Notes under the pieces: model-generated
Databases searched by the model: none
The model's input: the letters and a program-made list of their open reading frames with translations, nothing else
What the model was told of the DNA's origin: nothing
Position numbers and translations under genes: made by a program
DNA from: a virus
Taxonomy: Duplodnaviria > Heunggongvirae > Uroviricota > Caudoviricetes
DNA length: 48,774 bases
Strand: one strand, 5' to 3'
IMG/VR virus record: IMGVR_UViG_2909267149_000001
Part shown: in pieces, positions 2,989 through 48,635 of the stretch
Position numbering within the stretch: position 1 is the first letter of the stretch
Layout of the letters: each line of letters begins with the position of its first letter

Positions 2989-2992
2989 TGCT

Positions 2993-3109
2993 CATAGAAT
3001 TATATAATTATATATTTATATAAAAAGTGCTTTACAGGTGGGAAAAAAATTCCTAAGGTTATACCCGAAACCGAGCGATACCCGCCCTGGTTAAACCGGA
3101 GATAACCCG
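2993..3109 (+). promoter_or_regulatory. Repeated promoter-leader element, copy A (AT-rich palindrome, TTTACA-17bp-TAAGGT, conserved 5' UTR, GGAG SD)
   Basis: Near-identical to copies at 12450-12575 and 19477-19593; ends at the ATG of the 3110 ORF. Confidence 0.6.
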
Positions 3110-3490
3110 ATGAGCATGATTAAAATCCGCAAAAACGCTTTCCTTAAAATTCAAACTATCCTGGCTGGTTCTGTTGGCGTGATTTGCCGTTCTTCCTCAA
3201 GCCGCATCGATGACTGCTACGATGATGAGTATCGTGTGTCCTCATGCGATGAGGCTTTAACCTGGCTGAAGGAGAATCAGGAACGTGCCCAGGTATATCT
3301 GGAAACAGAGAACGGCAATCAGATGCTGCGTATTAGCGGTCGTTATGGATTTGAAACTACATTCATGGCCTATTTTAATCAGGCTTACTTTGACAAGGAG
3401 TTGGCCTGGTACACTGATCGCATGAGCAAAAGCGAGCCAGCCCCGATTACACCGCCGAACAATAAACCATTTTTATTCCTCGTTAAGTAA
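3110..3490 (+). CDS. Hypothetical protein driven by repeated promoter element
   Basis: 126-aa ORF immediately after the conserved leader and SD. Confidence 0.5.
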   Translation: MSMIKIRKNAFLKIQTILAGSVGVICRSSSSRIDDCYDDEYRVSSCDEALTWLKENQERAQVYLETENGNQMLRISGRYGFETTFMAYFNQAYFDKELAWYTDRMSKSEPAPITPPNNKPFLFLVK

Positions 3491-5202: not shown

Positions 5203-6345
5203 TTATGGTCTGCTTTTCTGTGCCAGCTTATCAGCACATGTTTTTATCAGATCCTGTAGTGTCCTGGCTGGCAGGTTTGCATCCAGTACGCTGAGTATGC
5301 TGTTGTGATCAGCCTGGTCGACTACTTTGCCTGTCGGTGGTAGTAGCTTGAGCTGAGGATTCAGGTTTTCGTCAAAGCTGATAAGTGCTCTGGCGTTTCT
5401 GAGCAGATCAAGAAGTAAGGCTGATATCACATTTTCCTGAGTCATTGCTGGCAGACTTAGCGCCGCTTTGGTTTTCCCTGTTGCCTTGTCAAACTCCTTG
5501 ATTAGTTCCTTCCTGTAGTTCGGTTCCGTTAATAGCCGATTATGCTCTGTTGCCGCGCGGATAATCGTTTTTTCCTGGTACAGTCGTTTAGCCAGATCGC
5601 GCTCGTACTGTGTTTTTAACACGCTGCTGATAGCGTTAAAGGCTTCAATGTAGGCCAGCTTGATATCCTTCACGCCTGGACCGTCGATACTTTCCATGAG
5701 CAAGGTAAATCCGTCTTTTGTCATGCGATAGATTGTTATTTCGCGGTCGCTTCCTTCCAACGGTCGTTGCTCTTTAAAGAAATGACGCGCCGCAGCTGTG
5801 CGAGGAATGCGTAACGCATCGATGGCCATAACGATGGAATTGTTTGTGGTGCTGAATGCCTGGGCAACATCGGCTGAGGTTGTGAGTGGCTCGTTGTTGC
5901 ACACTTTAATGTAAAACATTGGTTTGGCGTTGAGCGTATCGACAACCTCACGAGCATTGTTTGGTGAGACGGTTACGGTCGCGGCCGTTTGTGCGTTCTG
6001 GTTGAAATAGCAGTCTTCCAGTTTTTCGAACACATCCCAAGCCTGATCGGTTTCGAGCATTTTGGCGTGACGGGCTGCTCCGTGTTCGGTCCAGAGAATT
6101 AGGGAGCGGGCATTTTTACCAACTAACCCGATTGTTTCAGGTCTGTTCTTGAACTCGCGTAATTCGTTTTTTTCAATTTTAAAGTAATGCTTTCCGGCTA
6201 TGAATCGCGTCGTGTTGTTCAGAAAGTTATCAGAAATGTTTTTGATTTTTGTTCCGTATAACTGCGCCAGAAGTTCACTAGTGATAACGGGGATCTGGTT
6301 ATGCAGGATAGGCTGTAGGGTGTTAACGGTCGGAAGCGTTTTCAT
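5203..6345 (-). CDS. Phage antirepressor (Ant-like; KilA-N/ORF6N-like N-terminus and Rha-like regulatory domain)
   Basis: 380-aa protein with motifs recalled from antirepressor families; GGAGG RBS; translationally coupled to an upstream small ORF. Confidence 0.55.
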   Translation of the reverse strand: MKTLPTVNTLQPILHNQIPVITSELLAQLYGTKIKNISDNFLNNTTRFIAGKHYFKIEKNELREFKNRPETIGLVGKNARSLILWTEHGAARHAKMLETDQAWDVFEKLEDCYFNQNAQTAATVTVSPNNAREVVDTLNAKPMFYIKVCNNEPLTTSADVAQAFSTTNNSIVMAIDALRIPRTAAARHFFKEQRPLEGSDREITIYRMTKDGFTLLMESIDGPGVKDIKLAYIEAFNAISSVLKTQYERDLAKRLYQEKTIIRAATEHNRLLTEPNYRKELIKEFDKATGKTKAALSLPAMTQENVISALLLDLLRNARALISFDENLNPQLKLLPPTGKVVDQADHNSILSVLDANLPARTLQDLIKTCADKLAQKSRP

Positions 6346-6533: not shown

Positions 6534-7418
6534 GGTGATAGTTCCCTTAAAGGTTAAGGATACTCACCACCGTCTGGTTCCAATCATTGGGTGGTGAGAC
6601 GTACAGGGTTGGAACTACCGGTCACCATGGAATCCGGCGAGTCTTACGACTCCCCCGCACGCCCCACCATAATTTGGGTGTAGCAGTGCTTTACGCATAA
6701 AAAAACCGCTAACGCGGTATGCGCCATGATGATTATCGGGGTTCCAATCCCGGCCGTAGATTTTGCTACGGCTCGGAAAGTGTCCACCAATGGCGCATTC
6801 ATGTCAATACGGCGGGATTTTAACAGAGACAACCACATAGCGTGGGTTTATTGGTAGGCAGAAACAAAAAAACCGCCCTATTGAGGACGGTTCTTTCGTG
6901 CTGATCGGATTCGCGGTCCTTTCAGCATTACGTTGTTGTATAAACAACCACGCAAGCACAAGCAGCAAGTTAATTTTACCCAAAAGGTAATAATAGTCCA
7001 CTATTATGCTTCAAAAAATTGTGGTTCTTGTTGTGCCTGCAAACTCACAGATTGTGGGTAGGTTACTGATTTTGTGAAAATAAACGAGTTTTTTCGTTTA
7101 ATTTCTTTCCTATTACTAATCTTAAAATAATCGTAAAATACCTGTGGACCTTCCCGCCGATTCGCACCCGGGCACCGACTTTAGGGGAGGATTCTCCGTT
7201 GCCGTACATGCAAGCACAAGCAGCCGTGCTTGCTCTCGCGTTGTTTTCGTCGGTGGGGATGCCGTGAAACGGCCTGTAAGGGCCATACAATGAAAAAATA
7301 CTGTATGTGTATTTTTATCGTTGTTACTGGAGCTTTGTTTACGCCACATGGGGAGGGTTGGAAGATTACTGATAACGCTCTGAATGTGACGATAAACATT
7401 AGCAGCAAGTAGCGATTA

Positions 7419-7442
7419 GGCCCCTTCGGGGGCCTTTTTTAT
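7419..7442 (+). terminator. Rho-independent terminator on plus strand
   Basis: aggccccttcgggggcct hairpin followed by T6. Confidence 0.6.
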
Positions 7443-7450
7443 GGTTGAAT

Positions 7451-7633
7451 TTAAACTCTGGAGCGCATTAAGCCTTTCAGAACTGCTTCACGTACCCATT
7501 CTGGCCTGGTGGATAGCAGGGCAAATAAGCGACCAGCTTGCAGCCGTTTGAGGTCGGTTAGACGAGTTTTCAGTAACCGTGTATATTGTTGCTCGGACAT
7601 AACAAATTCCCCTTGTTGTGTCGCGACGGCCAA
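7451..7633 (-). CDS. Hypothetical small protein
   Basis: 60-aa ORF upstream of the antirepressor leader. Confidence 0.3.
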   Translation of the reverse strand: MAVATQQGEFVMSEQQYTRLLKTRLTDLKRLQAGRLFALLSTRPEWVREAVLKGLMRSRV

Positions 7634-7662
7634 CAGTTGGCGCTGGAGGCCGTCACCTTCTC

Positions 7663-7917
7663 TTACTTCTGGTTGTATTGAGCCTTGAGTAACTCAAAAG
7701 ATTTTGTCAGCACTTCTTTCAATGACATATCCATTGAGCTGGCGAACGTTTTGTACTCGCGTTTAAATTCAGGGTCGACGTTAAACGCCATTTGTGCCCC
7801 ACCTGATTTGGTTCTGGTTGGCGTTTCAGTCGGGTCGAAAACCTGCGGTTGTTCGATCGATGGCGGTACGCCTTTGCTGTTCTTCTTTGGTGGTTTTGAT
7901 GGTGCGGCCATGTGCAT
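7663..7917 (-). CDS. Small partition/regulatory protein, ParG-like (possible ribbon-helix-helix)
   Basis: 84-aa protein directly downstream of a ParA-type ATPase in the same operon; disordered basic N-terminus and structured C-terminus typical of ParG-like centromere binders. Confidence 0.45.
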   Translation of the reverse strand: MHMAAPSKPPKKNSKGVPPSIEQPQVFDPTETPTRTKSGGAQMAFNVDPEFKREYKTFASSMDMSLKEVLTKSFELLKAQYNQK

Positions 7918-7954
7918 CCCCTCTTATATAAATCTATAAAACTATAATTATATA

Positions 7955-8608
7955 TTACGCGGCAGTAGTCAGAGCCTCAAGCTGGTTGATAATCCCCTGA
8001 ATAACGTCGTCTGCCTTTTTGCGTGGCGCAACGTATGAGCACTCAATGAGGCTTAAGCCCTTATCCTGAGCTTTGCTCAGAGCTGGCTTGTGGGGAATGT
8101 ACTTATCGACAACAAAGTATGGCGTATTAGCCAGGTACTCTTGGGCTTCAATATAGTCAGCTTCGTTTTCAGCCGCGCCGGAAAACACCATGCAAATTTT
8201 CTTGATTGGTACACCCTTTTTAACGATGCCGTGAGCTGTGTTAACGGTGGTTTCCAGGTCATCGGTAGAGAATCTGGTTGGCAAAATAACCATATCCAGA
8301 AATTCAGAGAGCTTCGGTACTGATTCAGATGCGTAGGCACCGCCATCTACGATAACCAGGTCGTATACTTCTGATTCGATGATTTTCTGGACTTGTGATG
8401 GTGTGCCGCACGGCTGTGCCGCGATTGCTGGTTCGATATTGTTGGCCATTCTGCGTTGTACCCAACGCGTTACCGTTCCGTTAAGCACATCCATATCGAT
8501 CAGGCATACATTCCAGCCAGCCTTTGCATAAGCAACTGCTAAAGCACGAGCAATGGTTGATTTGGTTACGCCGCCTTTTCCGTTGAAAATACCTACAGAT
8601 ATAGTCAT
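7955..8608 (-). CDS. Partition ATPase, ParA/ParF family (Walker-type)
   Basis: Deviant Walker A GKGGVTKST near the N-terminus; start at 8608 preferred, 8623 is the alternative upstream ATG. Confidence 0.8.
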   Translation of the reverse strand: MTISVGIFNGKGGVTKSTIARALAVAYAKAGWNVCLIDMDVLNGTVTRWVQRRMANNIEPAIAAQPCGTPSQVQKIIESEVYDLVIVDGGAYASESVPKLSEFLDMVILPTRFSTDDLETTVNTAHGIVKKGVPIKKICMVFSGAAENEADYIEAQEYLANTPYFVVDKYIPHKPALSKAQDKGLSLIECSYVAPRKKADDVIQGIINQLEALTTAA

Positions 8609-8623
8609 TTGTCGAGACTCCAT

Positions 8624-8758
8624 GTGTTTGATTATATAATTCTATAAATCTATATTTATAGAATGAGGTAAGCATAACCAACTTTTTGGCGGATGAAAAG
8701 CGTTTTATATAATTATATAAATCTATAATCATATAAGCGGGCGTTAGCCCGCTTGCAG
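8624..8758. repeat. AT-rich repeat array upstream of the partition operon (candidate centromere/operator)
   Basis: Two blocks of tatataattatataaatctata-type repeats containing the TATAATTATA palindrome. Confidence 0.5.
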
Positions 8759-9133
8759 TCAGAGGTCAGCTATCGTTGATATCAGTTGATTTGCTAGCTG
8801 TCGCTGTTTACGTGAGAGGGTTAGAGCAGCTTCTGAGCGGTCGCTAAGAGGGGTGTTTTCATCGAGAATCATGAGGCATACAGAAATAATAGCCCTGTTA
8901 TATGCCATCAATGACTGGCACAGCTTCGATACCGCTGGCACATCGTATTGTAAGGCCGTTTTGAGGCAGACTTTTTGTTCTGATGCCAGATGAAGGATAG
9001 ATTCTATCCAGTCGATATCTTTCTCATTATCAATGAGTTGGCATAACATACACTCAATCGCTATGTTCAACGCTTGGATTTCGATTCCAGCAGTGATCAG
9101 AGTTTCGTTTTTATTGGCTGTATGTAATTCCAT
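8759..9133 (-). CDS. Hypothetical protein (early-left gene downstream of repressor)
   Basis: 124-aa ORF; an operator-like palindrome lies between it and the repressor gene. Confidence 0.4.
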   Translation of the reverse strand: MELHTANKNETLITAGIEIQALNIAIECMLCQLIDNEKDIDWIESILHLASEQKVCLKTALQYDVPAVSKLCQSLMAYNRAIISVCLMILDENTPLSDRSEAALTLSRKQRQLANQLISTIADL

Positions 9134-9159
9134 GCGTAGCCTCTTTTATACTTTTACAT

Positions 9160-9172
9160 GTTGTCAAAACCA
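9160..9172. promoter_or_regulatory. Operator palindrome CCACA-N3-TGTGG (distal, OL-like)
   Basis: Perfect 13-bp palindrome ccacaaaatgtgg identical in half-sites to the sites in the repressor/cro intergenic region. Confidence 0.5.
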
Positions 9173-9225
9173 CAAAATGTGGTTTTTTTGAGCGTAGAAA
9201 TGCACGGCTTTCGCCGTGCTGTGTA

Positions 9226-9882
9226 TCATAACCAGTTGACAACACTAACTACGCGGCCAAGAACTTTATAACGCTTAAATTCCTCGTTATTCAGATGCTT
9301 AGTGTTCATTTCAGCATCCCTTTCGGTTGACAGCATAACAGCATTGTCACCCGGTATGACTCTACAGTGCCTCAAAACAACCAGGCCATTTCTGTCTTCA
9401 AGGGCATAGATCCCCTCATGAATCTCTGTATCGTCTGTATTAATCAGGACTTGGGAGCCAGGGGATATTGTTGGTGACATTAACTCATCGTTGCTCTGGA
9501 GAACTGACAGAGACGATGGGTTGATGTTCTTGCTTCGTAGAATCTCCTGTTCTATCGCCAGCACTGGCTTTTCTCCGGCGTGCGATGCTATGTCATTTTT
9601 TATAGCTACAAGCCCAGGAATAACAGGAGCGTTAGTATTCTGGGGTGGGAACGGGTTATCTGTTAAGCACGCGATATAAGGCGCTGATGCTTTCAGGGCG
9701 TGCGCGATTTTCTTGATGGCAGGTATAGATGGTTGTCTTAATCCGGCCTCATAGTTCTGCAAGGTGCTTAAGCCTATTCCAGTGACTTGCTGGAGATCTC
9801 CGGCAGTCATGCCGGATTGTTTCCGTAGAGTCTGAATGCGCAGACCTATTTCTTTCTTGATGTTCTCGTCGTTGCTTTTCAT
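9226..9882 (-). CDS. CI-like repressor (N-terminal XRE HTH, C-terminal S24 LexA-like peptidase domain)
   Basis: 218 aa; N-terminal HTH; C-terminal domain with candidate Ser (LMSPTISPGS) and Lys (YKVLGR) dyad; divergent from a Cro-like gene across an operator region. Confidence 0.8.
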   Translation of the reverse strand: MKSNDENIKKEIGLRIQTLRKQSGMTAGDLQQVTGIGLSTLQNYEAGLRQPSIPAIKKIAHALKASAPYIACLTDNPFPPQNTNAPVIPGLVAIKNDIASHAGEKPVLAIEQEILRSKNINPSSLSVLQSNDELMSPTISPGSQVLINTDDTEIHEGIYALEDRNGLVVLRHCRVIPGDNAVMLSTERDAEMNTKHLNNEEFKRYKVLGRVVSVVNWL

Positions 9883-9920
9883 GTCTCATCAATCGTGAAT
9901 GGTGGGTTATTTATACATTA

Positions 9921-10036
9921 CCACATTTAGTGGTTTTCACATGGTAAGACGAGAGGTGGACCACAAATAGAAGGTTATTTTTTGTTTCGCCCATTGAAAA
10001 ACTCACAATATGTGGTTTTAATACCACATATTGTGG
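9921..10036. promoter_or_regulatory. Operator region (OR-like) with three CCACA-N3-TGTGG sites
   Basis: ccacatttagtgg (9921-9933), tcacaatatgtgg (10003-10015), ccacatattgtgg (10024-10036) between divergent repressor and cro-like genes. Confidence 0.6.
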
Positions 10037-10055
10037 TTTAACTGGAGTTCGTTAA

Positions 10056-12449: not shown

Positions 12450-12575
12450 ACATCGAAAATCTATAAATATATAATTATAGATTTATATAAAAAGTGCTTT
12501 ACAGGTGGGAAAAAATTTCCTAAGGTTATACCCGAAACCGAGCGATACCCGCCCTGGTTAAACCGGAGAAATCTG
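12450..12575 (+). promoter_or_regulatory. Repeated promoter-leader element, copy B
   Basis: Near-identical to copies A and C; ends at the ATG of the 12576 ORF. Confidence 0.6.
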
Positions 12576-13643
12576 ATGAATAAACAAGAAATTATTTCTG
12601 ACTGGATCAACAACCCTAACAGCCTGTTAAGCACTGATACTGGCTACCTATTACGCCATGTTAATGGTCGTATGGTCAAAAGCGATGAGCACGAAACCTT
12701 TTTCTTTGTTGAAGACGATGGGCGCATCTATGAGGATGGTTACTCTTATGAAGCCCAAACTGGTTGTATCCCTGCGGAGCTGGTGGACGTAACAGAAGAT
12801 CTGCGCAAAGCATGGCTTGAACAGCAGCAGCGCGGAGATGATTACGTAAACACCTATCAGGAACGCCAGAACGCGCGTCTTGCCCGATATATTGCTCGTG
12901 CAGAAAAAGCCAGAAAAGAAGGTGCGGTAGCGCATAAGCGAGCGCATGACCTGTTGGATGTGATCCCGTTAGGCCAGCCGATTTTAGTTGACCATTATAG
13001 CGCGAAAGGCCATCGCCGCCGTTTGTCTAAAGCTGATGCGTTATTAAGAAAAGCGTTTGTTGAATGCGAAAGTAAAGCATCACACTACGAGAGCAAAGCC
13101 GCAGGTGTTGGTCGTAATGGAATTTCGTCTGATGATCCTGATGCGCTATTTAAGTTGCTTCGTAAGCTGCAAGGCTGCATGAAGTCACACGTCAAAATGA
13201 AGGCCGCAAATAAGGCCATTCGCAAATACAAAAAAGACCAATTACAGCAGCTTTCTGCATTAATCGATCTCAGGTTTACAGAAAGCGAAGCCAAAGAGTT
13301 ACTGGCCGGAGATTTCTGTGGGCGCATCGGATTCCCTTCATACGCACTGAGCAACAATAACGCCGAAATCAAACGACTACAGAGCCGTATTAAGGAGCTT
13401 GAATCGGTCAAGTCTGTAACAGGAGCACAGCGCGAAGAATACGACGGCTTTTCTATGGAGATAGATCCAGAGGATAACCGCATCCTGTTTTATTTCCCTG
13501 GCAAACCAGAGGCAAACATTCGTTCGCTGCTTAAATCACGCGCCTTTAAGTGGAGTCCAACCCGTAATGCATGGGTTCGCAAGATTACTCCAAACGCCCT
13601 GGCTGATGCCCGATATCTAAAAGAATCGCTATTGAAAGCCTGA
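12576..13643 (+). CDS. Hypothetical 355-aa protein (first gene behind promoter-leader copy B)
   Basis: Long ORF with coiled-coil-like K/E-rich central region. Confidence 0.5.
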   Translation: MNKQEIISDWINNPNSLLSTDTGYLLRHVNGRMVKSDEHETFFFVEDDGRIYEDGYSYEAQTGCIPAELVDVTEDLRKAWLEQQQRGDDYVNTYQERQNARLARYIARAEKARKEGAVAHKRAHDLLDVIPLGQPILVDHYSAKGHRRRLSKADALLRKAFVECESKASHYESKAAGVGRNGISSDDPDALFKLLRKLQGCMKSHVKMKAANKAIRKYKKDQLQQLSALIDLRFTESEAKELLAGDFCGRIGFPSYALSNNNAEIKRLQSRIKELESVKSVTGAQREEYDGFSMEIDPEDNRILFYFPGKPEANIRSLLKSRAFKWSPTRNAWVRKITPNALADARYLKESLLKA

Positions 13644-13720
13644 CAGTAAGCCTACGGCGGGACGTCTCCCGCCGTATATAGAATTATATATTTATATAAA
13701 TGTATAAGGATGCCTCGACA

Positions 13721-14002
13721 ATGAAACGCAAAATTATTAACCCCCAAGATGTGATTAATTTCCTGACCGATCACCCATGTTCAAAAGTGGACGTAATCGC
13801 GGAGCACATTGGTGTGTCGCAGAACTCTATGCGTTGCAGACTGAGAAGCATGGTTGCCGAAGGACAGATAACAACCAGGAAAATAAATGGTTGCCTGTAC
13901 TACTCCGCTAAACCGGAATTGCCATTTGGCATGAATCCTAACTCCATGTTGTTTAACACCTTATTAGCCAAAGTTAAGCCGTTGAGAGGGGCTGTGGCAT
14001 GA
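13721..14002 (+). CDS. Small putative winged-helix DNA-binding protein
   Basis: AAGGA RBS before ATG 13721; the track start at 13700 is the alternative; preceded by the AT-rich palindromic motif. Confidence 0.4.
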   Translation: MKRKIINPQDVINFLTDHPCSKVDVIAEHIGVSQNSMRCRLRSMVAEGQITTRKINGCLYYSAKPELPFGMNPNSMLFNTLLAKVKPLRGAVA

Positions 14003-18216: not shown

Positions 18217-18340
18217 TACCGCCTGTGATTGGGTAAAGCCCATCTACCTGACTGATCACGATATCGATGTTATGGACCGCCAGACAAAGAAAGATATTCT
18301 GGCTCATAACAGGGCATGGGAAATCAACTGTCCAAAGTAA
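18131..18340 (+). CDS. o-spanin (Rz1-like lipoprotein), overlapping the i-spanin in another frame
   Basis: Signal peptide with lipobox-like LIASC; start embedded in the i-spanin gene. Confidence 0.55.
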   Translation: MYSRVLTIWLMTMLIASCGSRGSVPVVVDTACDWVKPIYLTDHDIDVMDRQTKKDILAHNRAWEINCPK

Positions 18341-18509
18341 TATATATTTCTATAATTATATAAATATATAGTTACAACATTCTATGCGCTTTTCTCATTA
18401 GCGCATGCATCAACCATGTTTGTCTGATATGCCGCCGCGCCCAAAAATCCTGAATTTATTGGCTGGGATTTTCGTGCGCGGCGCCACACCAGACAAACAG
18501 ATCAAATAT

Positions 18510-18585
18510 GGCCCCTTAGCTCAGTGGTTAGAGCAGGCGACTCATAATCGCACGGTCATCGGTTCAAATCCGGTAGGGGCCACCA
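18510..18585 (+). tRNA. tRNA with anticodon CAU (tRNA-Ile2-like or tRNA-Met), 76 nt with encoded CCA
   Basis: Cloverleaf: acceptor GGCCCCT/AGGGGCC, D-arm AGCTCAGTGGTTAGAGC, anticodon loop CTCATAA, T-arm GGTTCAAATCC; close to E. coli ileX from memory. Confidence 0.85.
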
Positions 18586-18893: not shown

Positions 18894-19481
18894 ATGGAGG
18901 CAATTGCATTGTTTAATCTGATTTATGCAGATCCCCCCTGGGAATACAAAGACAAGTGTAAGGATGGGAATCGTGGAGCTGGTTTTAAGTATCCAACGAT
19001 GAAAGCTGAGGAGATTGCTCGTATTCCTGTCTGGCAGCTTGCTAATCCTGAATCGTGTTTGTTGGCCATGTGGTGGGTTCCGACTCAGCCAGAAGAAGCG
19101 TTGCTGGTGGTGAAAGCATGGGGATTCAGGCTGATGACCATGAAGGGCTTCACATGGAACAAATGTGGTAGCCGACAGCCAGATAAGCTGGTGATGGGGA
19201 TGGGGCATATGACTCGTGCGAACAGTGAAGATTGCTTGTTTGCGGTAAAAGGCAAACTGCCGACTCGCCTTGATGCGGGGATCATTCAGTCGTTTACATC
19301 GCCTCGTCTGGAACATTCACGGAAGCCTGATGTGGTTCGTGACAAGCTGGTAAGACTGTTAGGTGATGTTCCTCGTATTGAGCTGTTTGCTCGCGGTGAT
19401 TTACCTGATGGCTGGCATGGCTGGGGCAACCAGTGCAACGGAGGTATCCAGTTGCATGATGCTCTCTGGCAAGTGTCATAG
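18894..19481 (+). CDS. DNA N6-adenine methyltransferase, MT-A70 family
   Basis: Catalytic DPPW motif (YADPPWEY) near the N-terminus. Confidence 0.75.
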   Translation: MEAIALFNLIYADPPWEYKDKCKDGNRGAGFKYPTMKAEEIARIPVWQLANPESCLLAMWWVPTQPEEALLVVKAWGFRLMTMKGFTWNKCGSRQPDKLVMGMGHMTRANSEDCLFAVKGKLPTRLDAGIIQSFTSPRLEHSRKPDVVRDKLVRLLGDVPRIELFARGDLPDGWHGWGNQCNGGIQLHDALWQVS

Positions 19482-19593
19482 AATTATATAATTATAGATT
19501 TATATAAAAAGTGCTTTACAGGTGGGAAAAAATTTCCTAAGGTTATAACCGAAACCGAGCGATACCCGCCCTGGTTAAACCGGAGATAACCCG
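19477..19593 (+). promoter_or_regulatory. Repeated promoter-leader element, copy C
   Basis: Near-identical to copies A and B; begins at the MTase stop codon and ends at the ATG of the 19594 ORF. Confidence 0.6.
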
Positions 19594-19863
19594 ATGAAAG
19601 TACAAGACCGTGAAGTAGTAAAAAACCTCCTGCAATACCTGACCTCAAAAAACCTGACTGGCAGCGTTGAGTTCCGTGAAGCGTTAAAACATTTCAACGT
19701 CACTACGGTTTATCGTTGGGAAAACAAACATTCTGAAAGACCGTATGTGGTGGATGTTTTTGCGCCTGATATTGAGTGCGGTTTTGAGCGCCATTCATTC
19801 AAAAAGAAACATTCCGCTGATGTTTTTTGTGAGGTTGTATGTGCGGCAGGAGATGATGAGTGA
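19594..19863 (+). CDS. Hypothetical protein
   Basis: 89-aa ORF directly behind promoter-leader copy C. Confidence 0.45.
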   Translation: MKVQDREVVKNLLQYLTSKNLTGSVEFREALKHFNVTTVYRWENKHSERPYVVDVFAPDIECGFERHSFKKKHSADVFCEVVCAAGDDE

Positions 19864-20976: not shown

Positions 20977-21690
20977 ATGATGCATTTAAAAAATATCAGT
21001 GCGCCGCTTATTGATCCCCGCGGCAAACATCCAGATGTGCTACCGCTTTTTACTGAAGACGGAAGAAATTGGTATGAGGAGCAGAAGAAATTTCAGCCTC
21101 ACACTTTAAAGATGATGTATGACAATAACGGCATTATCCGCAGTGTTTCGAAAGATGTATCGTTGCTTTGCCCGGATGGGATGAGTGTTATTGAGTTACC
21201 TGATACCGATGAGTATCGAAAAGTAGATAACACAGGTGATTGGCTCGTCAAAGATGTTCAAATTGTGAAGCGTGAAGGTCCAGAGCAGCGAGAAAACTCA
21301 CCGATATCTATTGGTGCAGAGTCTGTTCCGTTTAAGTTTGAATTATCCCAACTGGTAACAATGCGTATCAGTGACGAATGGGGAGAAGTTCAAGCCCGTG
21401 CTCAGTATGCAAATGGCGAAAACCAGTATCTGATTCACTATCAGGCGGCTGATGGCCGTGCTACTACAGAGTGGTTCGGTGAGTCGATGCTGATTGCGAT
21501 GGAGGATAAACGTCATCCTGGCTGTCCTGTTTTTGCCTGTATTGATCTGCCAGAAGGCGCGGTACTTGAAGACGACAAAGAAGAATGGTCGCCTGATGGC
21601 GAACTTGTCATTACCGGAATCGTGGATGGTAAGCCGAGATACTCTCGCATTGAGGTAAATAACGGCCACATCTGTTTGATACCAGAGTAA
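20977..21690 (+). CDS. Tail-fibre-assembly-chaperone-like protein (third paralog, extended C-terminus)
   Basis: N-terminus MMHLKNI...NWYEEQKKFQP...LKMMYD matches the two chaperones at 45707 and 46796. Confidence 0.5.
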   Translation: MMHLKNISAPLIDPRGKHPDVLPLFTEDGRNWYEEQKKFQPHTLKMMYDNNGIIRSVSKDVSLLCPDGMSVIELPDTDEYRKVDNTGDWLVKDVQIVKREGPEQRENSPISIGAESVPFKFELSQLVTMRISDEWGEVQARAQYANGENQYLIHYQAADGRATTEWFGESMLIAMEDKRHPGCPVFACIDLPEGAVLEDDKEEWSPDGELVITGIVDGKPRYSRIEVNNGHICLIPE

Positions 21691-21924: not shown

Positions 21925-22548
21925 ATGACAAAACAACTTAATGTGGTTTCTTTACCACTTTCTGTGTTGATTGGTTATGAAAAGAACGCTCGCACACACT
22001 CCGTGGAGCAGGTAGATCAGATTGTTGCCAGCATACAGGAGTACGGATGGACTAATCCGATCCTGATAGACGAGAACAACGTTGTAATTGCTGGTCATGG
22101 TCGAATTGCTGCGGCCACTCAGTTGGGGATGGATGATGTTCCCTGCATTGTTCTGGCTGGGCTAACGGAGAATCAGAAGAAGGCATATCGTCTGGCCGAC
22201 AACCGTATTCCGCTGAATGCTGGTTGGGATGAAGAGTTGTTAAGCGCGGAGCTTGCAGATCTTGCGGCCGATGATTTTGCTCTGGACTCAATTGGTTTTA
22301 CTCAGCGCGAACTGGATAACTTATTGAGTGTGGCGGTCTACGATGACACAGAAGGTATGGATATCCCATTTGAGAAGGATGAGGCCAAATCAGGCGTAAA
22401 AGTTCAGTACCTGTCATTTGGAGGTCATAAAATCCCGGCAACGGATGAGGAAGCGGATCGTTTTGACTGCGCGGTGTCTCGTTATGTTGATGATAATGGC
22501 AGCTATATCGGATTTGTATCCGCATTGCTGGCTGGGGAGGTGTGCTGA
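21925..22548 (+). CDS. ParB N-terminal-domain (ParB/Srx-like) protein
   Basis: ParB-N-like motifs including GHGR; paralogous to the 25215 ORF. Confidence 0.55.
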   Translation: MTKQLNVVSLPLSVLIGYEKNARTHSVEQVDQIVASIQEYGWTNPILIDENNVVIAGHGRIAAATQLGMDDVPCIVLAGLTENQKKAYRLADNRIPLNAGWDEELLSAELADLAADDFALDSIGFTQRELDNLLSVAVYDDTEGMDIPFEKDEAKSGVKVQYLSFGGHKIPATDEEADRFDCAVSRYVDDNGSYIGFVSALLAGEVC

Positions 22549-23921
22549 TGCTTCACCTCAATTACGACATAACGCACCTACGCGGCGCGGAATATAACCC
22601 GCGTTTTATCGGTGAGGATGATCTTGCGAGGCTGGCGGAAAGCGTCAGGGAGCTGGGGCTTGTGAAGCCATTGATAGTGCGCGGCGATTTGCTGGTGGCG
22701 GGACACCAAAGGACGAAGGCGCTACGTAAATTGGGAATAACGCGTGCTGCGGTGTATGTGTTGCCCTGTGAAACGACGGTATACGACGAAGTACGGTTTA
22801 ACCAACTGCATAACGGAACGGATTTTGATAGCGGAGATGAGCGTTGCAGGGTGTCCGGTCTGGAAGATAAGCATGGTTTTGTTCAGGTATCGGCAAGCCA
22901 GATCTCAGGCAATATGCGCGCGAAAATGGCATATGTTCGAAAGAACATAGCGGAACTGGTTATCAAGTATGGTCCGTGGGGTGGTTGTGTTGCTACTCAG
23001 TCTGGTGAGGTTATTCACTGTGCTCAGTATGCATTAGCAGCGAAAATGACGCGCACACCGCTAACGGTGTTTGTGATCCCTGATGTTGAGAAGGAAAAAT
23101 ACCAAAGTTATCTGAATAAAACTTATGGTGTATTTGAGTATTCTCATCTGGAGAAAACAACATACATCCAGACGTATGCGCAGCTTATGCGGTTGCGTAA
23201 TGGTGGCAGCCTGAAATCAAATCTGTATGAGTCGTTGATCCTCCCGATCATTGCCAAGACGCCAAGAGGAATTGATTTTGGTTCGGGGCAGGGAGACTAC
23301 GCGCGAATGCTCAGGGCAAAGGGATATAACCTGCATGATCTCGAGCTTTTCCGCCGTAAGGGCGCTGGAAACACTCTGGATAGGGCTGCAACAAACCGAA
23401 TGATTGATACGCTGGTGGACGACTTAAAAACGCGAGGGCGTTACGACTACGTGATTTGCGATAGCGTTTTGAACTCGGTCGATAGTGTCGAGGCTGAATG
23501 GTCCGTTCTGACGGTTCTGAAAGGCCTGTGTAAAGCTGGTGGGTCAATATTCTTTTCTGGTCGTAGCCGTGGAGAGCTGGAAACAGTCCTGAAGCAAACA
23601 CAAGCGGCGAGTTCCAAAAGCCGGCTTTATTTTATTGATCATAACGGTTTTACCGCGTTGTACCGGAAGGGGCACTGGTTTTACCAGAAGTTTCACTCTG
23701 ATGATGAAGTGAAGCAGTTGTGTCGTGTACATGGTTTCAGGATTAAGCGGTCAATATTCAACTGTAAGAGCTGGTATTTGCACGTCATTAACGATGATTC
23801 CCTTAGTTGGGCGAGTCTGGAGAAAGCTGTTCGTTTTGAGTTTGAGTTGCCGTTGCCTGGTGGTTCAACAATCGGACGATCTGATGATGTGCTGGCGGCT
23901 TTCCGGCCGTTGATTAAGTAG
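22548..23921 (+). CDS. ParB-N-domain protein fused to a class-I SAM-dependent methyltransferase-like domain
   Basis: N-terminal ParB-like region (GHQR); C-terminal motif I IDFGSGQGD, acidic residue after beta-2 (LHDLE), YDYVICDSVLN and LKGLCKAGGSIFF motifs; no DPPY/DPPW-type motif seen. Confidence 0.55.
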   Translation: MLHLNYDITHLRGAEYNPRFIGEDDLARLAESVRELGLVKPLIVRGDLLVAGHQRTKALRKLGITRAAVYVLPCETTVYDEVRFNQLHNGTDFDSGDERCRVSGLEDKHGFVQVSASQISGNMRAKMAYVRKNIAELVIKYGPWGGCVATQSGEVIHCAQYALAAKMTRTPLTVFVIPDVEKEKYQSYLNKTYGVFEYSHLEKTTYIQTYAQLMRLRNGGSLKSNLYESLILPIIAKTPRGIDFGSGQGDYARMLRAKGYNLHDLELFRRKGAGNTLDRAATNRMIDTLVDDLKTRGRYDYVICDSVLNSVDSVEAEWSVLTVLKGLCKAGGSIFFSGRSRGELETVLKQTQAASSKSRLYFIDHNGFTALYRKGHWFYQKFHSDDEVKQLCRVHGFRIKRSIFNCKSWYLHVINDDSLSWASLEKAVRFEFELPLPGGSTIGRSDDVLAAFRPLIK

Positions 23922-25214: not shown

Positions 25215-25805
25215 ATGGCTCTAAAAATCGAATATTTACCAGTCGGTAAGCTGCTCAGATACGCCAAAAATTCACGGACTCATTCAGATGAGCAGGTTGA
25301 ACAGTTGGTGAACAGTATCCGTGAGTTCGGTTTCACTAATCCTGTGCTGATCGATGAAAAGAATGAACTGATTGCGGGGCATGGTCGGCTTGCAGCAGCC
25401 GAAATTCTGGAAATGGATAAAGTTCCGGCGATTCGGTTGAGTAACCTTTCTGAAAAACAGAAGAAGGCTTACAGGATTGCAGATAACAAGCTGGCCTTAA
25501 ATGCTGGCTGGGATATGCAGCTTCTGGCCGAAGAAGTCAAAGAGTTAATGGATGATGATTTTGATATTGATCTGCTTGGGTTTAATGATGCAGAGCTTGA
25601 CGAAATGTTAAGCGATGAACAGCCGCAGGAAGAAGACGATAATTCTTCCCCTGTTGTTCAAATTAAGTACCTGTCTATTGATAAAGAACGTATTCCCGCG
25701 ACGGATATGGAAATTGCATTGTTGCTGGATGTTTATCGTCAGTACCACGACGCGCATGAAACGCATGAGGGATTTGTTCAGTATCTTGCTAATGGTTGCA
25801 AGTAA
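25215..25805 (+). CDS. ParB N-terminal-domain protein (paralog of the 21925 ORF)
   Basis: Shares extended blocks with the 21925 product (NPxLIDE, IAGHGR, QKKAYRxADN, LNAGWD); acidic C-terminus. Confidence 0.55.
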   Translation: MALKIEYLPVGKLLRYAKNSRTHSDEQVEQLVNSIREFGFTNPVLIDEKNELIAGHGRLAAAEILEMDKVPAIRLSNLSEKQKKAYRIADNKLALNAGWDMQLLAEEVKELMDDDFDIDLLGFNDAELDEMLSDEQPQEEDDNSSPVVQIKYLSIDKERIPATDMEIALLLDVYRQYHDAHETHEGFVQYLANGCK

Positions 25806-43634: not shown

Positions 43635-45704
43635 GTGAGTAAATTATTATTTACGATGACTGACGCCGGGCGTCAGGAGCTGGTTAATGCCAACAAAACA
43701 GGAACAAATAAAGTTGAGATTGTTTCTGTTGGTTTAGGTAGTAGATATTATGTCACGTCAACTTCACAAACAAATATAACAAACGAAATAAAACGACTTA
43801 CCACAATAGGTGGCAAAGTTGTTTCCCCTGATACAATTCATGTAACGGCGAAGGATGATAGTAAAGATGAGTATGTTGTCCATACAATAGGATTGTATAC
43901 AAATAAGGGAACGTTGTTTGCTGTATACTCGCAAGAACAAGCAATAATAAATAAAGCATCATCTACTATTGCTTTAATATCAAGTGACATAGCAATCAAG
44001 ACTCTTGATACTAAAAATATTACATTTGGTGATATTGAGTTTATTAATCCTCCCGCAACCGAAACTGTTGTTGGGGTTGCAAGATTTGCCAATGAACAAG
44101 AAATTGATGACGGTACAGATGATTCCCTTGCTGTTTCAGCAAAGCGGCTTAAGCAAGCCATTGTGAAACATGAACAATCACGTAATCATCCTGATGCAAC
44201 TTTAACCTCAAAAGGCTTTGTTCAACTTAGCAGCGCCACCAATAGCTCGTCTGAAACGCTTGCTGCGACGCCTAAGGCTGTTAAGGCAGCATATGACCTG
44301 GCTAATGGCAAATACACCGCACAGGACGCTACCACAGCGCGAAAAGGGATTGTTCAGCTCAGTAGTGCCACCAACAGCACGTCTGAAACGCTAGCAGCAA
44401 CACCAAAGGCTGTTAAGGCAGCGTATGATCTTGCGGCCGGAAAGGCTCCGTCCAATCACACGCATTCGTGGGAGCAGATAACAAATGTGCCTGTAGCTTC
44501 ACTGACTGTAAGGGGAATAACTCAGCTCAGTAGTTCCACCAACAGCACGTCTGAAACACTGGCCGCGACATCGAAAGCGGTCAAGGCGGTAATGGATGAA
44601 ACGAACAAGAAAGCGCCCTTAAACAGTCCTGCGTTGACCGGAACGCCAACAACGCCAACTGCGCGACAGGGAACGAATAATACCCAAATCGCAAGCACGG
44701 CTTTCGTTATGGCTGCGATCGCTGCCCTCGTGGACTCGTCACCTGACGCACTGAATACGCTGAACGAGTTAGCGGCGGCGCTGGGAAACGACCCGAATTT
44801 TGCGACCACCATGACTAACGCGCTTGCGGGTAAGCAACCGAAAGATGCCACCCTGACGGCGCTGGCCGGGCTTGCTACTGCGGCAGACAAGTTTCCGTAT
44901 TTTACGGGGAATGATGTCGCCAGCCTGGCACCCCTGACAAAAGTCGGGCGGGATATTCTTGCGAAATCGACCGTTGCTGCCGTTATCGAATACCTCGGTT
45001 TACGAGAACTCGGCACAAGCGGGGAGAAAATACCGTTACTCAGTACAGCGAATACCTGGACTAATAGACAAACATTCAGCGGTGGCCTTTCTGGGGAACT
45101 GTCCGGCAATGCCGCTACTGCAACAAAGCTGAAAACAGCACGAAAAATTGCTGGAGTTGGTTTTGATGGTTCTAGCGATATTTCAATTAGTGCCAAAAAT
45201 GTCAATGCATTTGCACTCCGACAAACAGGTAATACTGTTAATGGTGATACATCCGTTGGATGGAATTGGGATAGTGGTGCATATAACGCCCTGATTGGTG
45301 GTGCATCTGCATTAATTCTTCACTTTAATATAAATGCTGGTAGCTGTCCTGCCGTACAATTCCGTGTGAATTATAAAAATGGTGGCATTTCCTACAGGTC
45401 GGCTCGTGATGGTTATGGGTTTGAATTAGGTTGGTCAGATTTCTATACCACGACACGAAAACCTTCAGCGGGAGATGTTGGTGCATATACGCAGGCAGAA
45501 TGTAACTCAAGGTTTATTACAGGTATTCGCCTTGGCGGTCTGTCATCTGTTCAGACATGGAATGGTCCCGGCTGGTCTGACAGGTCAGGTTATGTCGTTA
45601 CGGGTTCAGTTAACGGAAACCGTGATGAATTAATTGATACAACTCAGGCAAGGCCAATTCAGTATTGCATTAATGGGACGTGGTATAACGCGGGGAGTAT
45701 TTAA
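43635..45704 (+). CDS. Tail fibre protein (constant N-terminal part plus currently expressed variable C-terminus Sv)
   Basis: 689 aa; three internal ~30-aa repeats; crossover site inside the ORF; C-terminus YCINGTWYNAGSI parallels the inverted alternative. Confidence 0.8.
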   Translation: MSKLLFTMTDAGRQELVNANKTGTNKVEIVSVGLGSRYYVTSTSQTNITNEIKRLTTIGGKVVSPDTIHVTAKDDSKDEYVVHTIGLYTNKGTLFAVYSQEQAIINKASSTIALISSDIAIKTLDTKNITFGDIEFINPPATETVVGVARFANEQEIDDGTDDSLAVSAKRLKQAIVKHEQSRNHPDATLTSKGFVQLSSATNSSSETLAATPKAVKAAYDLANGKYTAQDATTARKGIVQLSSATNSTSETLAATPKAVKAAYDLAAGKAPSNHTHSWEQITNVPVASLTVRGITQLSSSTNSTSETLAATSKAVKAVMDETNKKAPLNSPALTGTPTTPTARQGTNNTQIASTAFVMAAIAALVDSSPDALNTLNELAAALGNDPNFATTMTNALAGKQPKDATLTALAGLATAADKFPYFTGNDVASLAPLTKVGRDILAKSTVAAVIEYLGLRELGTSGEKIPLLSTANTWTNRQTFSGGLSGELSGNAATATKLKTARKIAGVGFDGSSDISISAKNVNAFALRQTGNTVNGDTSVGWNWDSGAYNALIGGASALILHFNINAGSCPAVQFRVNYKNGGISYRSARDGYGFELGWSDFYTTTRKPSAGDVGAYTQAECNSRFITGIRLGGLSSVQTWNGPGWSDRSGYVVTGSVNGNRDELIDTTQARPIQYCINGTWYNAGSI
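44214..44600 (+). repeat. Three ~90-bp direct repeats inside the tail fibre gene
   Basis: Repeated coding units LSSATNS(S/T)SETLAAT(P/S)KAVKA starting near 44214, 44346 and 44513. Confidence 0.7.
44983..45008. promoter_or_regulatory. Inversion crossover site (gix/cix-like), left
   Basis: ttatcgaatacctcggtttacgagaa; inverted partner at 47803-47828 shares the core cctcggtttac. Confidence 0.65.
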
Positions 45705-45706
45705 CG

Positions 45707-46240
45707 ATGATGCACTTAAAAAACATTACTGCTGGCAACCCTAAAACAAAAGAGCAATACCAGCTAACAAAGCAATTTAACATCAAATGGCTTTATTCAG
45801 ATGATGGAAAAAACTGGTATGAGGAACAAAAGAATTTCCAGCCAGACACTTTGAAAATGGTCTATGACCATAACGGCGTTATTATTTGTATTGAAAAGGA
45901 TGTTTCAGCAATTAATCCGGAAGGCGCAAGCGTCGTTGAATTACCTGATATTACAGCAAATCGCCGTGCTGACATTTCGGGTAGATGGATGTTCAAAGAT
46001 GGCGTAGTGGTAAAGCGAACTTATACCGAGGAAGAGCAGAGGCAGCAGGCGGAAAATGAAAAGCAAAGCCTGCTACAGCTCGTCAGGGATAAAACCCAGC
46101 TATGGGACTCACAGCTACGGCTGGGCATCATTTCCGACGAGAATAAACAAAAATTAACCGAGTGGATGCTCTATGCGCAGAAAGTCGAATCTACAGACAC
46201 CTCCAGCCTGCCAGTAACATTTCCCGAACAACCTGAATGA
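45707..46240 (+). CDS. Tail fibre assembly chaperone (U-like)
   Basis: 177-aa protein directly after the fibre gene; paralogous N-terminus MMHLKNI. Confidence 0.7.
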   Translation: MMHLKNITAGNPKTKEQYQLTKQFNIKWLYSDDGKNWYEEQKNFQPDTLKMVYDHNGVIICIEKDVSAINPEGASVVELPDITANRRADISGRWMFKDGVVVKRTYTEEEQRQQAENEKQSLLQLVRDKTQLWDSQLRLGIISDENKQKLTEWMLYAQKVESTDTSSLPVTFPEQPE

Positions 46241-46268
46241 GACAAGGCCCGATAGCGGGCCTTAATTT

Positions 46269-46796
46269 TTATTCAGGCTTTTGTGGCCATTCAGGATTTG
46301 CCGTATCCACACGGCTGACCAGAACACTGTAGCGTTCCCATGACTCCAGTCGTGCGCGCTCCTCATCCGTCGCCATATTCAGCCTGACAGCGCGTTCCAG
46401 TGGCTGAATAACGCTTTCTGCTTCGGAAAGTAACGCGGCCTTTTGTGATTCGGCCTGTTGTTGCTGTTCGTCAGCCGTATAAATCCGTTTAACCACAGCT
46501 CCGTCCTTAAACATCCACTTCCCTGAATCATCGGCACGACGATTGGCTGTTATATCGGGAACCTCAACGACGCTAAAGCCTTCAGGGTTAAGCGTAGAGG
46601 CATCCTTGGTGATAGCGACAATAATATTATTTTCATCGTAAACAATCTTTATTGTGTCTGGCTGAAAGTTTTTCACTTCCTCATACCAGTTTTTTCCGTC
46701 CTCAGAGTAAAGCCAGATAACTCCGTGTTTCTTTGTTAATTCGTACTGCTCAAGTGTTTTAGCGTTACCCGCTTTAATGTTCTTTAAGTGCATCAT
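46269..46796 (-). CDS. Alternative tail fibre assembly chaperone (U'-like)
   Basis: 175-aa paralog on the opposite strand inside the invertible segment. Confidence 0.7.
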
Positions 46797-47892: not shown

Positions 47893-48447
47893 ATGCAATA
47901 TGGTTATGCGAGGGTGTCAACTTTTGACCAGAATTTGGAATTACAATTGGAGGCGCTCAGGAGTTCAGGATGTGACCGGATTTTTGAAGATAAAATATCC
48001 GGTGCTAAATCAAAACGACCAGGACTTGATAAGCTACTGAAGGTGTTACGGCCGGGCGATACGGTTATTGTCTGGAAGCTGGACCGAATGGGGCGTTCTC
48101 TGATTCATCTTGTTGATTTACTAAACTATTTTTTATCAAACAACATTGAGTTTATTTCGATTACGGAAGGGATAAAAATTAGCACTTCAATTGGCCGCTT
48201 TGCCTACACGATGCTGAGTGCAGTCGCAGAGATGGAGCGGGAAAATATGATTGAAAGAACGCGTGCAGGATTGGCGGTGGCAAGGGCTAACGGCAGGATA
48301 GGAGGACGCCGCTCAAAATTGGCACCAGAGCAATGGGAACAGATCGGAAGGCTTATTGCGAATGGTGTTTCACGTAAGCGGATAGCGATTATCTTCGATG
48401 TTACCTTATCCACGCTTTACCGCAGGTTTCCGGCTGGGAATCATTGA
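47893..48447 (+). CDS. Serine DNA invertase, Gin/Cin/Hin/Pin family
   Basis: N-terminal YARVSTFDQ with catalytic Ser; C-terminal HTH; strong resemblance to Gin from memory; adjacent to the right crossover site. Confidence 0.9.
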   Translation: MQYGYARVSTFDQNLELQLEALRSSGCDRIFEDKISGAKSKRPGLDKLLKVLRPGDTVIVWKLDRMGRSLIHLVDLLNYFLSNNIEFISITEGIKISTSIGRFAYTMLSAVAEMERENMIERTRAGLAVARANGRIGGRRSKLAPEQWEQIGRLIANGVSRKRIAIIFDVTLSTLYRRFPAGNH

Positions 48448-48635
48448 CTGGAGTTAGGCCAGTAGTATGATGCTCGCAAAACGAGATCCAATTTAGATCC
48501 TTTTACTGGTGGATTATCGTTCGATCAGTGAGAGACTTCGTGCATGACCGAAAGTGTTGTGGTAGAGTTCTCTTAAAACCACGTAACGTGGTTATGATTG
48601 TGGGTGTCTGGTTGAAAAGTGACCAGATATGGAAA

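Follow-up and report, generated by a model that had tools for sequence, protein, structure and literature searches.

The complete circular phage-plasmid recorded as IMG/VR virus IMGVR_UViG_2909267149_000001 (48,774 bp, Caudoviricetes), whose whole length is called the window in the following, carries a small partition operon on its minus strand. In this operon the gene of a small partition ATPase, parA, is directly followed by the gene of an 84-amino-acid (84-aa) protein and by a third small gene, an open reading frame (ORF) of 49 aa. Short arrays of an 8-bp repeat mark both the operon and several distant sites of the element, and these arrays and their probable reader are the focus of this report. 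The par region (7400-9900) is 100% identical to that of the 50-kb E. coli plasmid CP099184. In PLSDB, 57 of 60 matched plasmids cover at least 80% of this region, nearly all with at least 95% identity; their hosts are Escherichia, Salmonella and Klebsiella, and the plasmid of E. coli ATCC 25922 (NZ_CP009073) is among the 60 records. Furthermore, the window is 99.0-99.7% identical to the Yersinia phages vB_YpM_39, 41 and 44.

The repeat unit is 8 bp long and nearly palindromic, with the pattern W-T-N-T-A-K-A-W, the consensus TTATATAA and the variants TTATAGAA and TTCTATAA. The window holds exactly eight arrays (A to H, Table 1), and each of the eight consists of four units placed head to tail over 32 bp; three lie at the partition genes (B, C and D) and five are dispersed (A, E, F, G and H). 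Unit positions T4, A5 and A7 are invariant in all 32 units, T2 is kept in 28 of them, and all eight arrays are pure A/T. Single units score between +4.5 and +12.7 bits, as opposed to -7 to -26 bits for the flanking octamers, and the ends of the arrays are therefore sharp. Read toward the downstream gene, six of the eight arrays (A-E and H) end in a perfect TTATATAA, and the asymmetric TATAG variants face downstream in 10 of 13 cases (a hand count of units). An earlier description of the window made from its letters alone, the sequence-only reading, had pointed to an AT-rich palindromic core motif at these places. The sites are all present, within 1-2 nucleotides (nt) of the positions it gave, and the core is real, but the 10-mer in question, TATAATTATA, arises secondarily where two units of the 8-bp, four-unit repeat adjoin (6 copies, where dinucleotide shuffles predict 0.07), and arrays C and F are complete without it.

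Three tests show that chance does not account for the arrays. A matrix of four consecutive units assigns 38-44 bits to the eight arrays and 0.1 bits to the next best site of the window, and a motif-blind lag-8 autocorrelation of the whole window returns exactly the same eight segments, with no other 8-bp-periodic DNA in 48.8 kb. When the matrix is trained only on the par arrays B, C and D, the five dispersed arrays score 37-41 bits, compared with maxima of 16.8 bits in 200 Markov-1 simulated genomes, 17.2 bits in 1000 simulations that followed the composition of the intergenic DNA of this plasmid, and 34.8 bits in 1000 random 8-kb sequences of 80% A+T. The non-coding DNA of the plasmid without the arrays has 44.6% G+C, and the arrays are thus AT islands rather than a trait of AT-rich spacers. 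The enrichment over a matched background and over AT-rich intergenic DNA, which had been named as a check of the motif, therefore holds, as does the claim that every instance is intergenic: in the collinear RefSeq record all eight arrays lie outside annotated coding sequences, and overlaps with stop codons amount to at most 6 nt (1 nt of the parA stop codon for array B, 6 nt of the methyltransferase stop codon for array H). A search of Rfam found no family for the arrays or for the leaders that follow some of them.

Table 1. Arrays, promoters and par operon genes of the phage-plasmid (positions in the window)
Feature	Position	Strand	Description
Array A	2992..3023		units TCATAGAA TTATATAA TTATATAT TTATATAA
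Array B	7924..7955		four units on the ribosome-binding site of the 84-aa gene
Array C	8632..8663		just downstream of the putative parA promoter, about +2 to +33 of the minus-strand transcript
Array D	8705..8736		ends 5 bp upstream of the putative parA -35
Array E	12459..12490		ends 7 bp upstream of -35 TTTACA; module of the DUF3560 gene
Array F	13676..13707		between a terminator-like hairpin (13653-13675) and the ribosome-binding site/start GGATGCCTCGACAATG of gene 13721-14002
Array G	18340..18371		follows the lysis genes; tRNA-Met (18510-18585) lies about 140 bp further downstream
Array H	19476..19507		reaches into the MT-A70 methyltransferase stop codon; 7 bp separate its end from -35 TTTACA
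Promoter-leader module after array A	3031..3109	+	further copies at 12498-12575 and 19515-19593
Putative parA promoter	8671..8699	-	-35 TTTTCA (8699-8694), 17-bp spacer, -10 TATGCT (8676-8671)
parA	7955..8623	-	small partition ATPase; longest ORF 222 aa, RefSeq start at 8608
84-aa ParG/omega-like protein	7663..7917	-	candidate binder of the arrays; directly downstream of parA
49-aa ORF	7451..7600	-	third small par operon gene, MSEQQYTRLL... (MSEQQYTRLLKTRLTDLKRLQAGRLFALLSTRPEWVREAVLKGLMRSRV)

On the minus strand, the parA leader is built in the order hairpin, array D, promoter, array C, GGAG and start codon; the hairpin that precedes array D in the parA sense (8738-8753) belongs to the upstream gene. 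The 37 bp that separate parA from the 84-aa gene are filled entirely by array B. Array A comes after the higBA-like terminator (2961-2983), with 7 bp between its end and a -35 TTTACA, and array H heads gene 19594-19863 together with the genes after it. The promoters named here and in Table 1, at parA as well as behind A, E and H, were placed by eye from the sequence. A consensus sigma-70 scan picked up neither the TTTACA-17-TAAGGT promoters nor that of parA, and mostly reported TATAAT-like hexamers within the arrays, on the wrong strand for parA. Recognisable -35 and -10 elements beside an array are confined to A, E, H and the parA promoter. The proposal that the motif is shared with at least five other promoter regions consequently stands for A, E and H, which are the heads of the three promoter-leader copies as had been described, but not for array F, which lies on a ribosome-binding site, nor for array G, which precedes tRNA-Met.

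The start context behind array F, GGATGCCTCGACAATG, is the same as that of parA, GGAGTCTCGACAAATG, with the common ribosome-binding context CTCGACAATG, and the same start context follows an array at 27683 of a related Serratia plasmid described below. The sequence CTCGACA(A)ATG is common to parA (8608-8623) and the gene after array F (13708-13723), and also occurs in the Serratia lineage (L005, 22096-22108 and 27715-27727). Judging from this resemblance, array, leader and ribosome-binding site appear to have been duplicated as one unit between parA and the array F gene.

Arrays A, E and H are parts of one 122-nt module present in three copies (2992-3113, 12459-12580 and 19476-19597), and they are therefore not independent contexts. 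Behind the array, each copy of the module comprises a -35 TTTACA (3031-3036 in the first copy), a 17-bp spacer containing the palindrome GGAAnnnnnTTCC (GGAA-N5-TTCC), a -10 TAAGGT (3054-3059) and a leader of about 50 nt with a conserved hairpin and the Shine-Dalgarno sequence GGAGA. The geometry of A, E and H relative to the -35 is that of array D at parA. The inverted repeat of the spacer (3037-3053, 12504-12520 and 19521-19537) reads TAGGAAAATATTTCCTA in Salmonella, GGGAAAAAAATTCC in E. coli and TAGGAAAAAAAGTCCTA in Serratia, and its conservation suggests that a second, dimeric regulator may act at the core promoter. Within each genome the three copies are nearly identical (in the Salmonella relative, L004, they begin at 30357, 38169 and 45566). 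Between E. coli and Salmonella the same substitutions are found across all three copies, which points to concerted evolution or gene conversion of the module.

ParA carries the deviant Walker A motif GKGGVTKS and matches CbiA/ParA/MipZ families of Pfam; its match to the NCBIfam model ParA_partition is full-length (2-200 of 203, E 4.7e-22) and lies below the curated cutoff. It is thus a small Walker-type ParA of the type Ib size (about 200-220 aa) that lacks a DNA-binding domain at its N-terminus. In the 84-aa protein, the N-terminal half is basic and rich in proline, with a predicted flexible tail at residues 1-40; QMAFNVDPEFKREYKTFASSMDMSLKEVLTKSFELLKAQ comes next, with a predicted beta-strand QMAFNV (42-47) and helices at 49-61 and 64-83. 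An AlphaFold2 (AF2) model gives a disordered tail, an extended segment and two helices, the strand being unable to form in a monomer, and fold searches with the 84-aa protein gave no informative match. An exhaustive HMMER search with the 84-aa protein found 63 representative clusters at E<=1e-3, most of about 80 aa and with the same layout; a few of the 63 are long proteins which match only the low-complexity tail.

The family profile comprises 53 sequences, and the search for related loci was made with an alignment of 6 sequences. Sub-threshold Pfam matches within the family are to RHH_10 (13 of 53), Antitox_RHH (11 of 53) and ParG (1 of 53, E 0.018). Sequence and profile searches of the PDB gave weak matches only, to SvtR (2kel, E 0.24) and, in register, to ParG (1p94, E 0.7). 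In hhalign, the 53-sequence profile aligns with the ParG family profile over 46 columns, which span the whole ribbon-helix-helix (RHH) domain, with a probability of 81% and an E-value of 1.2e-5. As the window protein does not reach the gathering threshold of Pfam ParG (PF09274), we do not assign it to PF09274 but to a putative RHH family of its own that lacks annotation. That it is an omega/ParG-like RHH centromere-binding protein is part of the explanation which we infer to be the best.

The comparison of related elements carries most of the argument, as it links the arrays to the par operon across lineages. In the Salmonella relative the 84-aa protein is about 89% identical and the arrays are kept at homologous places. 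Of the 23 differences between the E. coli and Salmonella arrays, 21 concern unit positions 1, 3, 6 and 8, and positions 5 and 7 are free of any. This alignment points to purifying selection on the array motif, the motif being conserved and not merely the sequence.

More distant relatives have changed the unit. The Serratia plasmid pJSRIV006_2 has RepA, ParA (54%), the 84-aa protein, a CI-like repressor and the early operon in common with the window, and a lambda-like tail; its 84-aa homologue is 39% identical in a protein alignment and 38-40% in local matches. With the full 32-unit TTATATAA matrix this plasmid holds no array of at least 20 bits, and with the TTATATAA matrix trained on the par arrays its arrays reach intermediate cross-scores of up to 30 bits. 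It has arrays of its own unit, ATTTAAAT, two bracketing the parA promoter and four elsewhere, which score 38-43 bits against a null maximum of 20.4. Its parA promoter is arranged as in the window, in the order array, -35 (here TTTACA), 17 bp, -10 (here TAATCT), array. Three of the four dispersed Serratia arrays head the same promoter-leader module, now with the Serratia unit, and the fourth precedes the start CCTCGACAATG, like array F.

The Vibrio phage PQ189289 is a 41-kb phage-plasmid; detected as common to it and the window are ParA, the 84-aa protein, the 49-aa ORF, two proteins of the early region (DUF1064 and the neighbouring 125-aa ORF) and distant structural proteins. Around its parA promoter lie two four-unit arrays of the GCACGAAA type in inverted orientation, and six further arrays occupy short intergenic gaps, all in gene sense and several within the tail operon. 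They score 28-41 bits against a null maximum of 26.7, and the exact GCACGAAA unit occurs in 11 copies, compared with 1.25 expected. The dispersed arrays sit on ribosome-binding sites in late operons, with no room for a promoter. Similar patterns were found in viral contigs, with the GCACGAAA unit at par and dispersed sites in L022, the ATTTAAAT unit in seven arrays over 20 kb in L023, and a fourth unit, CGCTAATT/CGCGAATT, in about ten arrays over 15 kb in L021. In each of these relatives the changed unit thus occurs both at parA and at dispersed intergenic sites, and the two always agree within a genome. The unit differs by lineage and the par and dispersed arrays change together, as expected if one par-encoded protein reads them all.

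In homologues from other phyla, which are more distant, 8-bp periodic arrays adjoin the gene. Alphaproteobacterial contigs (L028, L030-L036 and L040) carry a conserved array, ATGAAATAACGAAAGGATGAAAGRATGAAA, at a fixed distance of about 2 kb downstream of the ParG-like gene. The alphaproteobacterial loci on chromosomes or metagenome-assembled genomes may be integrated elements with only one or two arrays.

A further correspondence concerns the predicted recognition surface. R36, N38 and N40 of ParG align with Q42, A44 and N46 of the 84-aa protein, and these positions are occupied by Q-A/S-N in proteins that accompany TTATATAA units, by P-N-N with ATTTAAAT (two lineages) and by x-N-K with CGAA-containing units. 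In these alignments the strand residues predicted to face the DNA track the sequence of the unit.

Two characterized systems offer the closest comparison: by function it is omega/delta, by structure and remote homology ParG/ParF. The ParG protein of TP228 binds 4-bp boxes separated by 4-bp AT-rich spacers, that is with an 8-bp period and one dimer per box, and cooperatively coats an operator and a centromere which both lie upstream of its operon, with autorepression (PMC3130281). Like the type Ib system ParF-ParG-parH, the window combines a small ParA with a following protein of about 76-84 aa, for which a flexible tail and an RHH domain are predicted here. Repeat arrays also lie upstream of the operon: the putative parA promoter is flanked on both sides by a four-unit array, not only in the window but also in Serratia and the Vibrio phage. 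The TP228 sites are ACTC boxes, 8 in the operator and 12 in parH, at one locus upstream of parFG, and no dispersed sites are described in the ParG papers covered here, whereas the palindromic TTATATAA units of the window come in blocks of four, and one of these arrays separates the two par genes.

The centromeres of omega, from the inc18 plasmid pSM19035, are contiguous heptad operator arrays in the copS, delta and omega promoters, where omega regulates negatively or positively according to occupancy (PMC4627068). At least four contiguous repeats are needed for omega to activate its ParA, and RHH-type ParB proteins do not spread (PMC9499535). The window protein is as small as omega and is predicted to have an unstructured N-terminal tail and an RHH domain as well, and on both replicons several arrays of short contiguous repeats are found at the promoters of different operons. 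In the window, 5-7 bp lie between the end of D, A, E or H and a -35 element (placed by eye), 5' leaders or ribosome-binding sites hold C, B and F, and all eight arrays consist of exactly four units, a number whose functional need is known only for omega (PMC9499535). Omega sites are unspaced 7-bp heptads (WATCACW), 6-10 per site, on plasmids of Firmicutes; the window has 8-bp units, four per site, at eight sites of a Gram-negative phage-plasmid, some of them on ribosome-binding sites and beside lysis, tRNA and late-region genes, with a putative role in regulation.

Scattered partition sites have precedents in other protein families. KorB of RK2 is a partition DNA-binding protein with scattered sites that influence other genes, and the work of Ravin et al. 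in 2008 on N15 reportedly found that scattered SopB/sopC partition sites influence gene expression, including that of phage late genes. SopB and KorB are large proteins of the helix-turn-helix (HTH) ParB family which bind single palindromes, whereas the window protein is of the RHH type (predicted) and its sites are arrays of tandem units. It has no ParB domain, and no pairing of a ParB/Srx N-terminal domain with an HTH domain, as in spreading ParB proteins, was found beside parA; the ParB/Srx-domain proteins of the window (21925-23921 and 25215-25805) are in the methyltransferase/terminase region, away from parA. In the IncW plasmid R388, the partition-associated protein StbA doubles as a regulator that acts through short direct repeats (stbDR) at several promoters, but it differs from the window protein in fold and in repeat length, and R388 is a conjugative plasmid, not a phage-plasmid. 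The literature on vB_YpM_41, on ParG/RHH proteins in phage-plasmids and on the ATCC 25922 plasmid yielded no description of the arrays or of the protein family. What seems new here is an unannotated, putative RHH centromere-binding family of Gram-negative phage-plasmids, with arrays of four 8-bp units at 6-10 sites per genome and a lineage-specific specificity that is switched in concert.

Taken together, we consider it likely that the 84-aa protein, whose gene comes right after parA, binds all eight arrays as its cognate sites. The sequence-only reading had proposed that the arrays at the partition genes are the operator/centromere of this protein and that the dispersed copies serve the same protein, and comparative genomics lends support to both suggestions. 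It had offered two consequences, a global regulator in analogy to KorB or distributed centromere-like sites; in omega, which is mechanistically closer than KorB, the same sites serve both purposes (PMC4627068). By the proposed mechanism, the flexible basic N-terminal tail would contact ParA, and the C-terminal beta-strand and two helices would dimerise. One dimer would bind per 8-bp unit, so that four dimers would cooperatively coat each 32-bp array. With D upstream of the -35 and C past the transcription start, the two arrays that bracket the parA promoter could support both autoregulation and the assembly of a ParA-stimulating partition complex, and array B, on the ribosome-binding site of the 84-aa gene, could provide feedback on that gene.

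The five dispersed arrays would be bound by the same protein and could serve as additional centromere sites for a non-spreading protein, since none of them falls short of the four contiguous units required for a functional centromere in the omega system. As they lie at a promoter (A, E and H) or at a gene start (F and G), they would also place those transcription units under the control of the partition protein. Binding, stoichiometry, the choice between repression and activation, and centromere activity are all inferred. That all eight arrays keep strictly to four units fits a centromeric role with activation of ParA, and the fixed spot just upstream of the -35 at A, E and H, as for D at parA, fits a regulatory one; by analogy with omega, the arrays may have both roles.

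Three other explanations for the arrays have to be weighed. The first assigns binding to the product of the 49-aa ORF, or to both small proteins together, and leaves the 84-aa protein as a mere adaptor of ParA. In the elements of E. coli, Serratia and Vibrio the 49-aa ORF is indeed kept next to the gene of the 84-aa protein (although without annotation in the RefSeq relatives), and in these elements it co-varies with the arrays equally well. However, tblastn (E<0.1) detected no copy in L019, L021, L023, L024, L026, L027 or the alphaproteobacterial loci, several of which have 8-bp arrays beside parA and a ParG-like gene; two of these contigs, L021 and L023, even hold many dispersed arrays. The arrays are assigned to the 84-aa protein because the 49-aa ORF was not detected in several lineages that bear them. 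Furthermore, the ORF has no Pfam match and no recognisable DNA-binding domain, and tandem 8-bp periodic sites are a known signature of RHH dimers (PMC3130281), which together make binding by the 49-aa product improbable.

The second explanation restricts function to the arrays near par and regards the dispersed ones as passengers, copied along with pieces of the par promoter and ribosome-binding site or with the 122-nt cassette, and now neutral or slowly decaying. The shared origin of A, E and H in one module would agree with it, and the parA ribosome-binding context CTCGACAATG at array F suggests an origin by duplication of par promoter fragments. Decay is at odds with the four intact units kept in all five dispersed arrays and with the restriction of the divergence from Salmonella to the degenerate unit positions. 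Arrays G and F lie outside the cassette, and in Serratia the cassette is retained but with the Serratia unit. Dispersed arrays moreover occur in at least four lineages with different units, which would have required their re-specification together with the par arrays. We therefore regard passenger status of the dispersed arrays as quite improbable.

Slightly less probable again, and very unlikely, is the third explanation, in which the arrays are protein-independent or host-factor elements (promoter-boosting AT tracts that are curved or similar to UP elements, or nucleation sites of H-NS, IHF or Fis) and the partition protein has no role at the dispersed sites. The pure A/T composition of the window arrays, the position of A, E, H and D where an UP element would be expected (about -42 to -74) and the TATAAT-like hexamers within the arrays speak for it. 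We reject it because units containing G/C (GCACGAAA and CGCTAATT) fill the same four-unit, 8-bp architecture in relatives, where the dispersed sites always match the units of the genome's own par locus. Within operons, arrays B and F as well as those of the Vibrio phage coincide with ribosome-binding sites and are not found upstream of promoters; 8-bp phasing, an exact length of four units and invariant T4, A5 and A7 are not properties of UP elements; and the remaining non-coding DNA of the plasmid is not AT-rich. Other proteins of the element were rejected as array binders, namely RepA, which has no detectable homologue in the Vibrio element, the CI-like repressor, which also lacks a homologue there and has candidate palindromes of its own (ACCACAnnnTGTGGT), and the 124-aa protein encoded upstream of parA, which has no homologue in either the Vibrio element or Serratia.

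Binding of all eight arrays by the 84-aa protein remains the favoured explanation, and several observations weigh against it. The protein has no Pfam or NCBIfam match of its own, and its relationship to ParG is backed by a single profile-profile score of moderate strength. The 49-aa ORF accompanies the arrays in all three fully analysed elements. The switch between the E. coli and Serratia units is modest, as both are A/T-only with a central TA and the cross-matrix scores are about 30 compared with 43 bits. Duplication could account for the spread of A, E and H as copies of one module. Finally, the dispersed arrays of the Vibrio phage, all in gene sense and without room for a promoter, are unexplained by simple operator logic; their place in late operons suggests roadblock or silencing roles, or purely centromeric ones.

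The remainder of the element combines plasmid and phage functions. Besides parA, the annotated relatives have RepA, a toxin-antitoxin pair resembling HigB/HigA, a Rha/antirepressor region, a CI-like HTH-S24 repressor, an early operon, lysis genes, a module for terminase, portal and capsid, a contractile tail like that of P2 and a tail-fibre segment that can be inverted. Rfam matches at gathering level to C4 antisense RNA (of the P1/P7 immI type), isrK and ryfA lie at 6587-6674 (minus strand), 6699-6772 (minus strand) and 7144-7440 (plus strand), and adjoin the Rha/antirepressor-like gene 5203-6345; from their position, a secondary immunity module like c4/ant of P1 may adjoin the par operon.

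A second repeat family, with the core palindrome ACCACAnnnTGTGGT, is found at 9162-9189, 9995-10043, 21926-21953 and 48571-48598. Its copies cluster between the gene of the CI-like repressor (9226-9882, minus strand) and the early operon (10056, plus strand), and because of this concentration they are probably the CI operators; extra copies lie at 21.9 kb and near the invertase gene. At 44210-44602, 45707-46796 and 47893-48447 lie the parts of a host-range switch, in which the tail-fibre gene contains three 93-nt tandem-like repeats and opposed tail-fibre assembly genes occur together with a Hin-type invertase. A 161-nt piece of the tail-fibre assembly gene (45790-45950) is 71% identical to 21045-21205 in gene 20977-21690.

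Phage-plasmids must segregate as low-copy plasmids and at the same time keep their lytic genes quiet. To our knowledge, a coupling of segregation and lytic silencing is known only for N15 and for P1-type systems with HTH ParB proteins. From the arrays at accessory and late units, and in the Vibrio tail operon, a far-reaching role can be imagined for the partition protein as master organiser of the dual life of the phage-plasmid. The segregation complex would silence or time phage genes in the plasmid state, gene expression would sense copy number and partition status, and phage-plasmids that circulate together would fall into incompatibility or 'immunity' groups, set by the concerted switching of the unit at the 6-10 loci of each genome. 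We consider this extension speculative and rather unlikely. If the arrays are only extra centromeres, they belong to an ordinary but well-defined new par family.

Members of the unannotated family, of about 80 aa, are encoded by phage-plasmids from Escherichia, Salmonella, Serratia and Vibrio, with more distant members in other bacteria. The family appears to be omega-like, in that one small RHH protein is associated with many four-unit sites on the same replicon, and it would offer a readable recognition code, in which three beta-strand residues can be compared with an 8-bp unit. The arrays may also serve as a handle for incompatibility typing, curing and engineering of the plasmids of about 48 kb that are common in clinical and animal E. 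coli. Furthermore, the family would provide a natural case of concerted re-specification, in which a whole set of cis sites has changed its specificity together.

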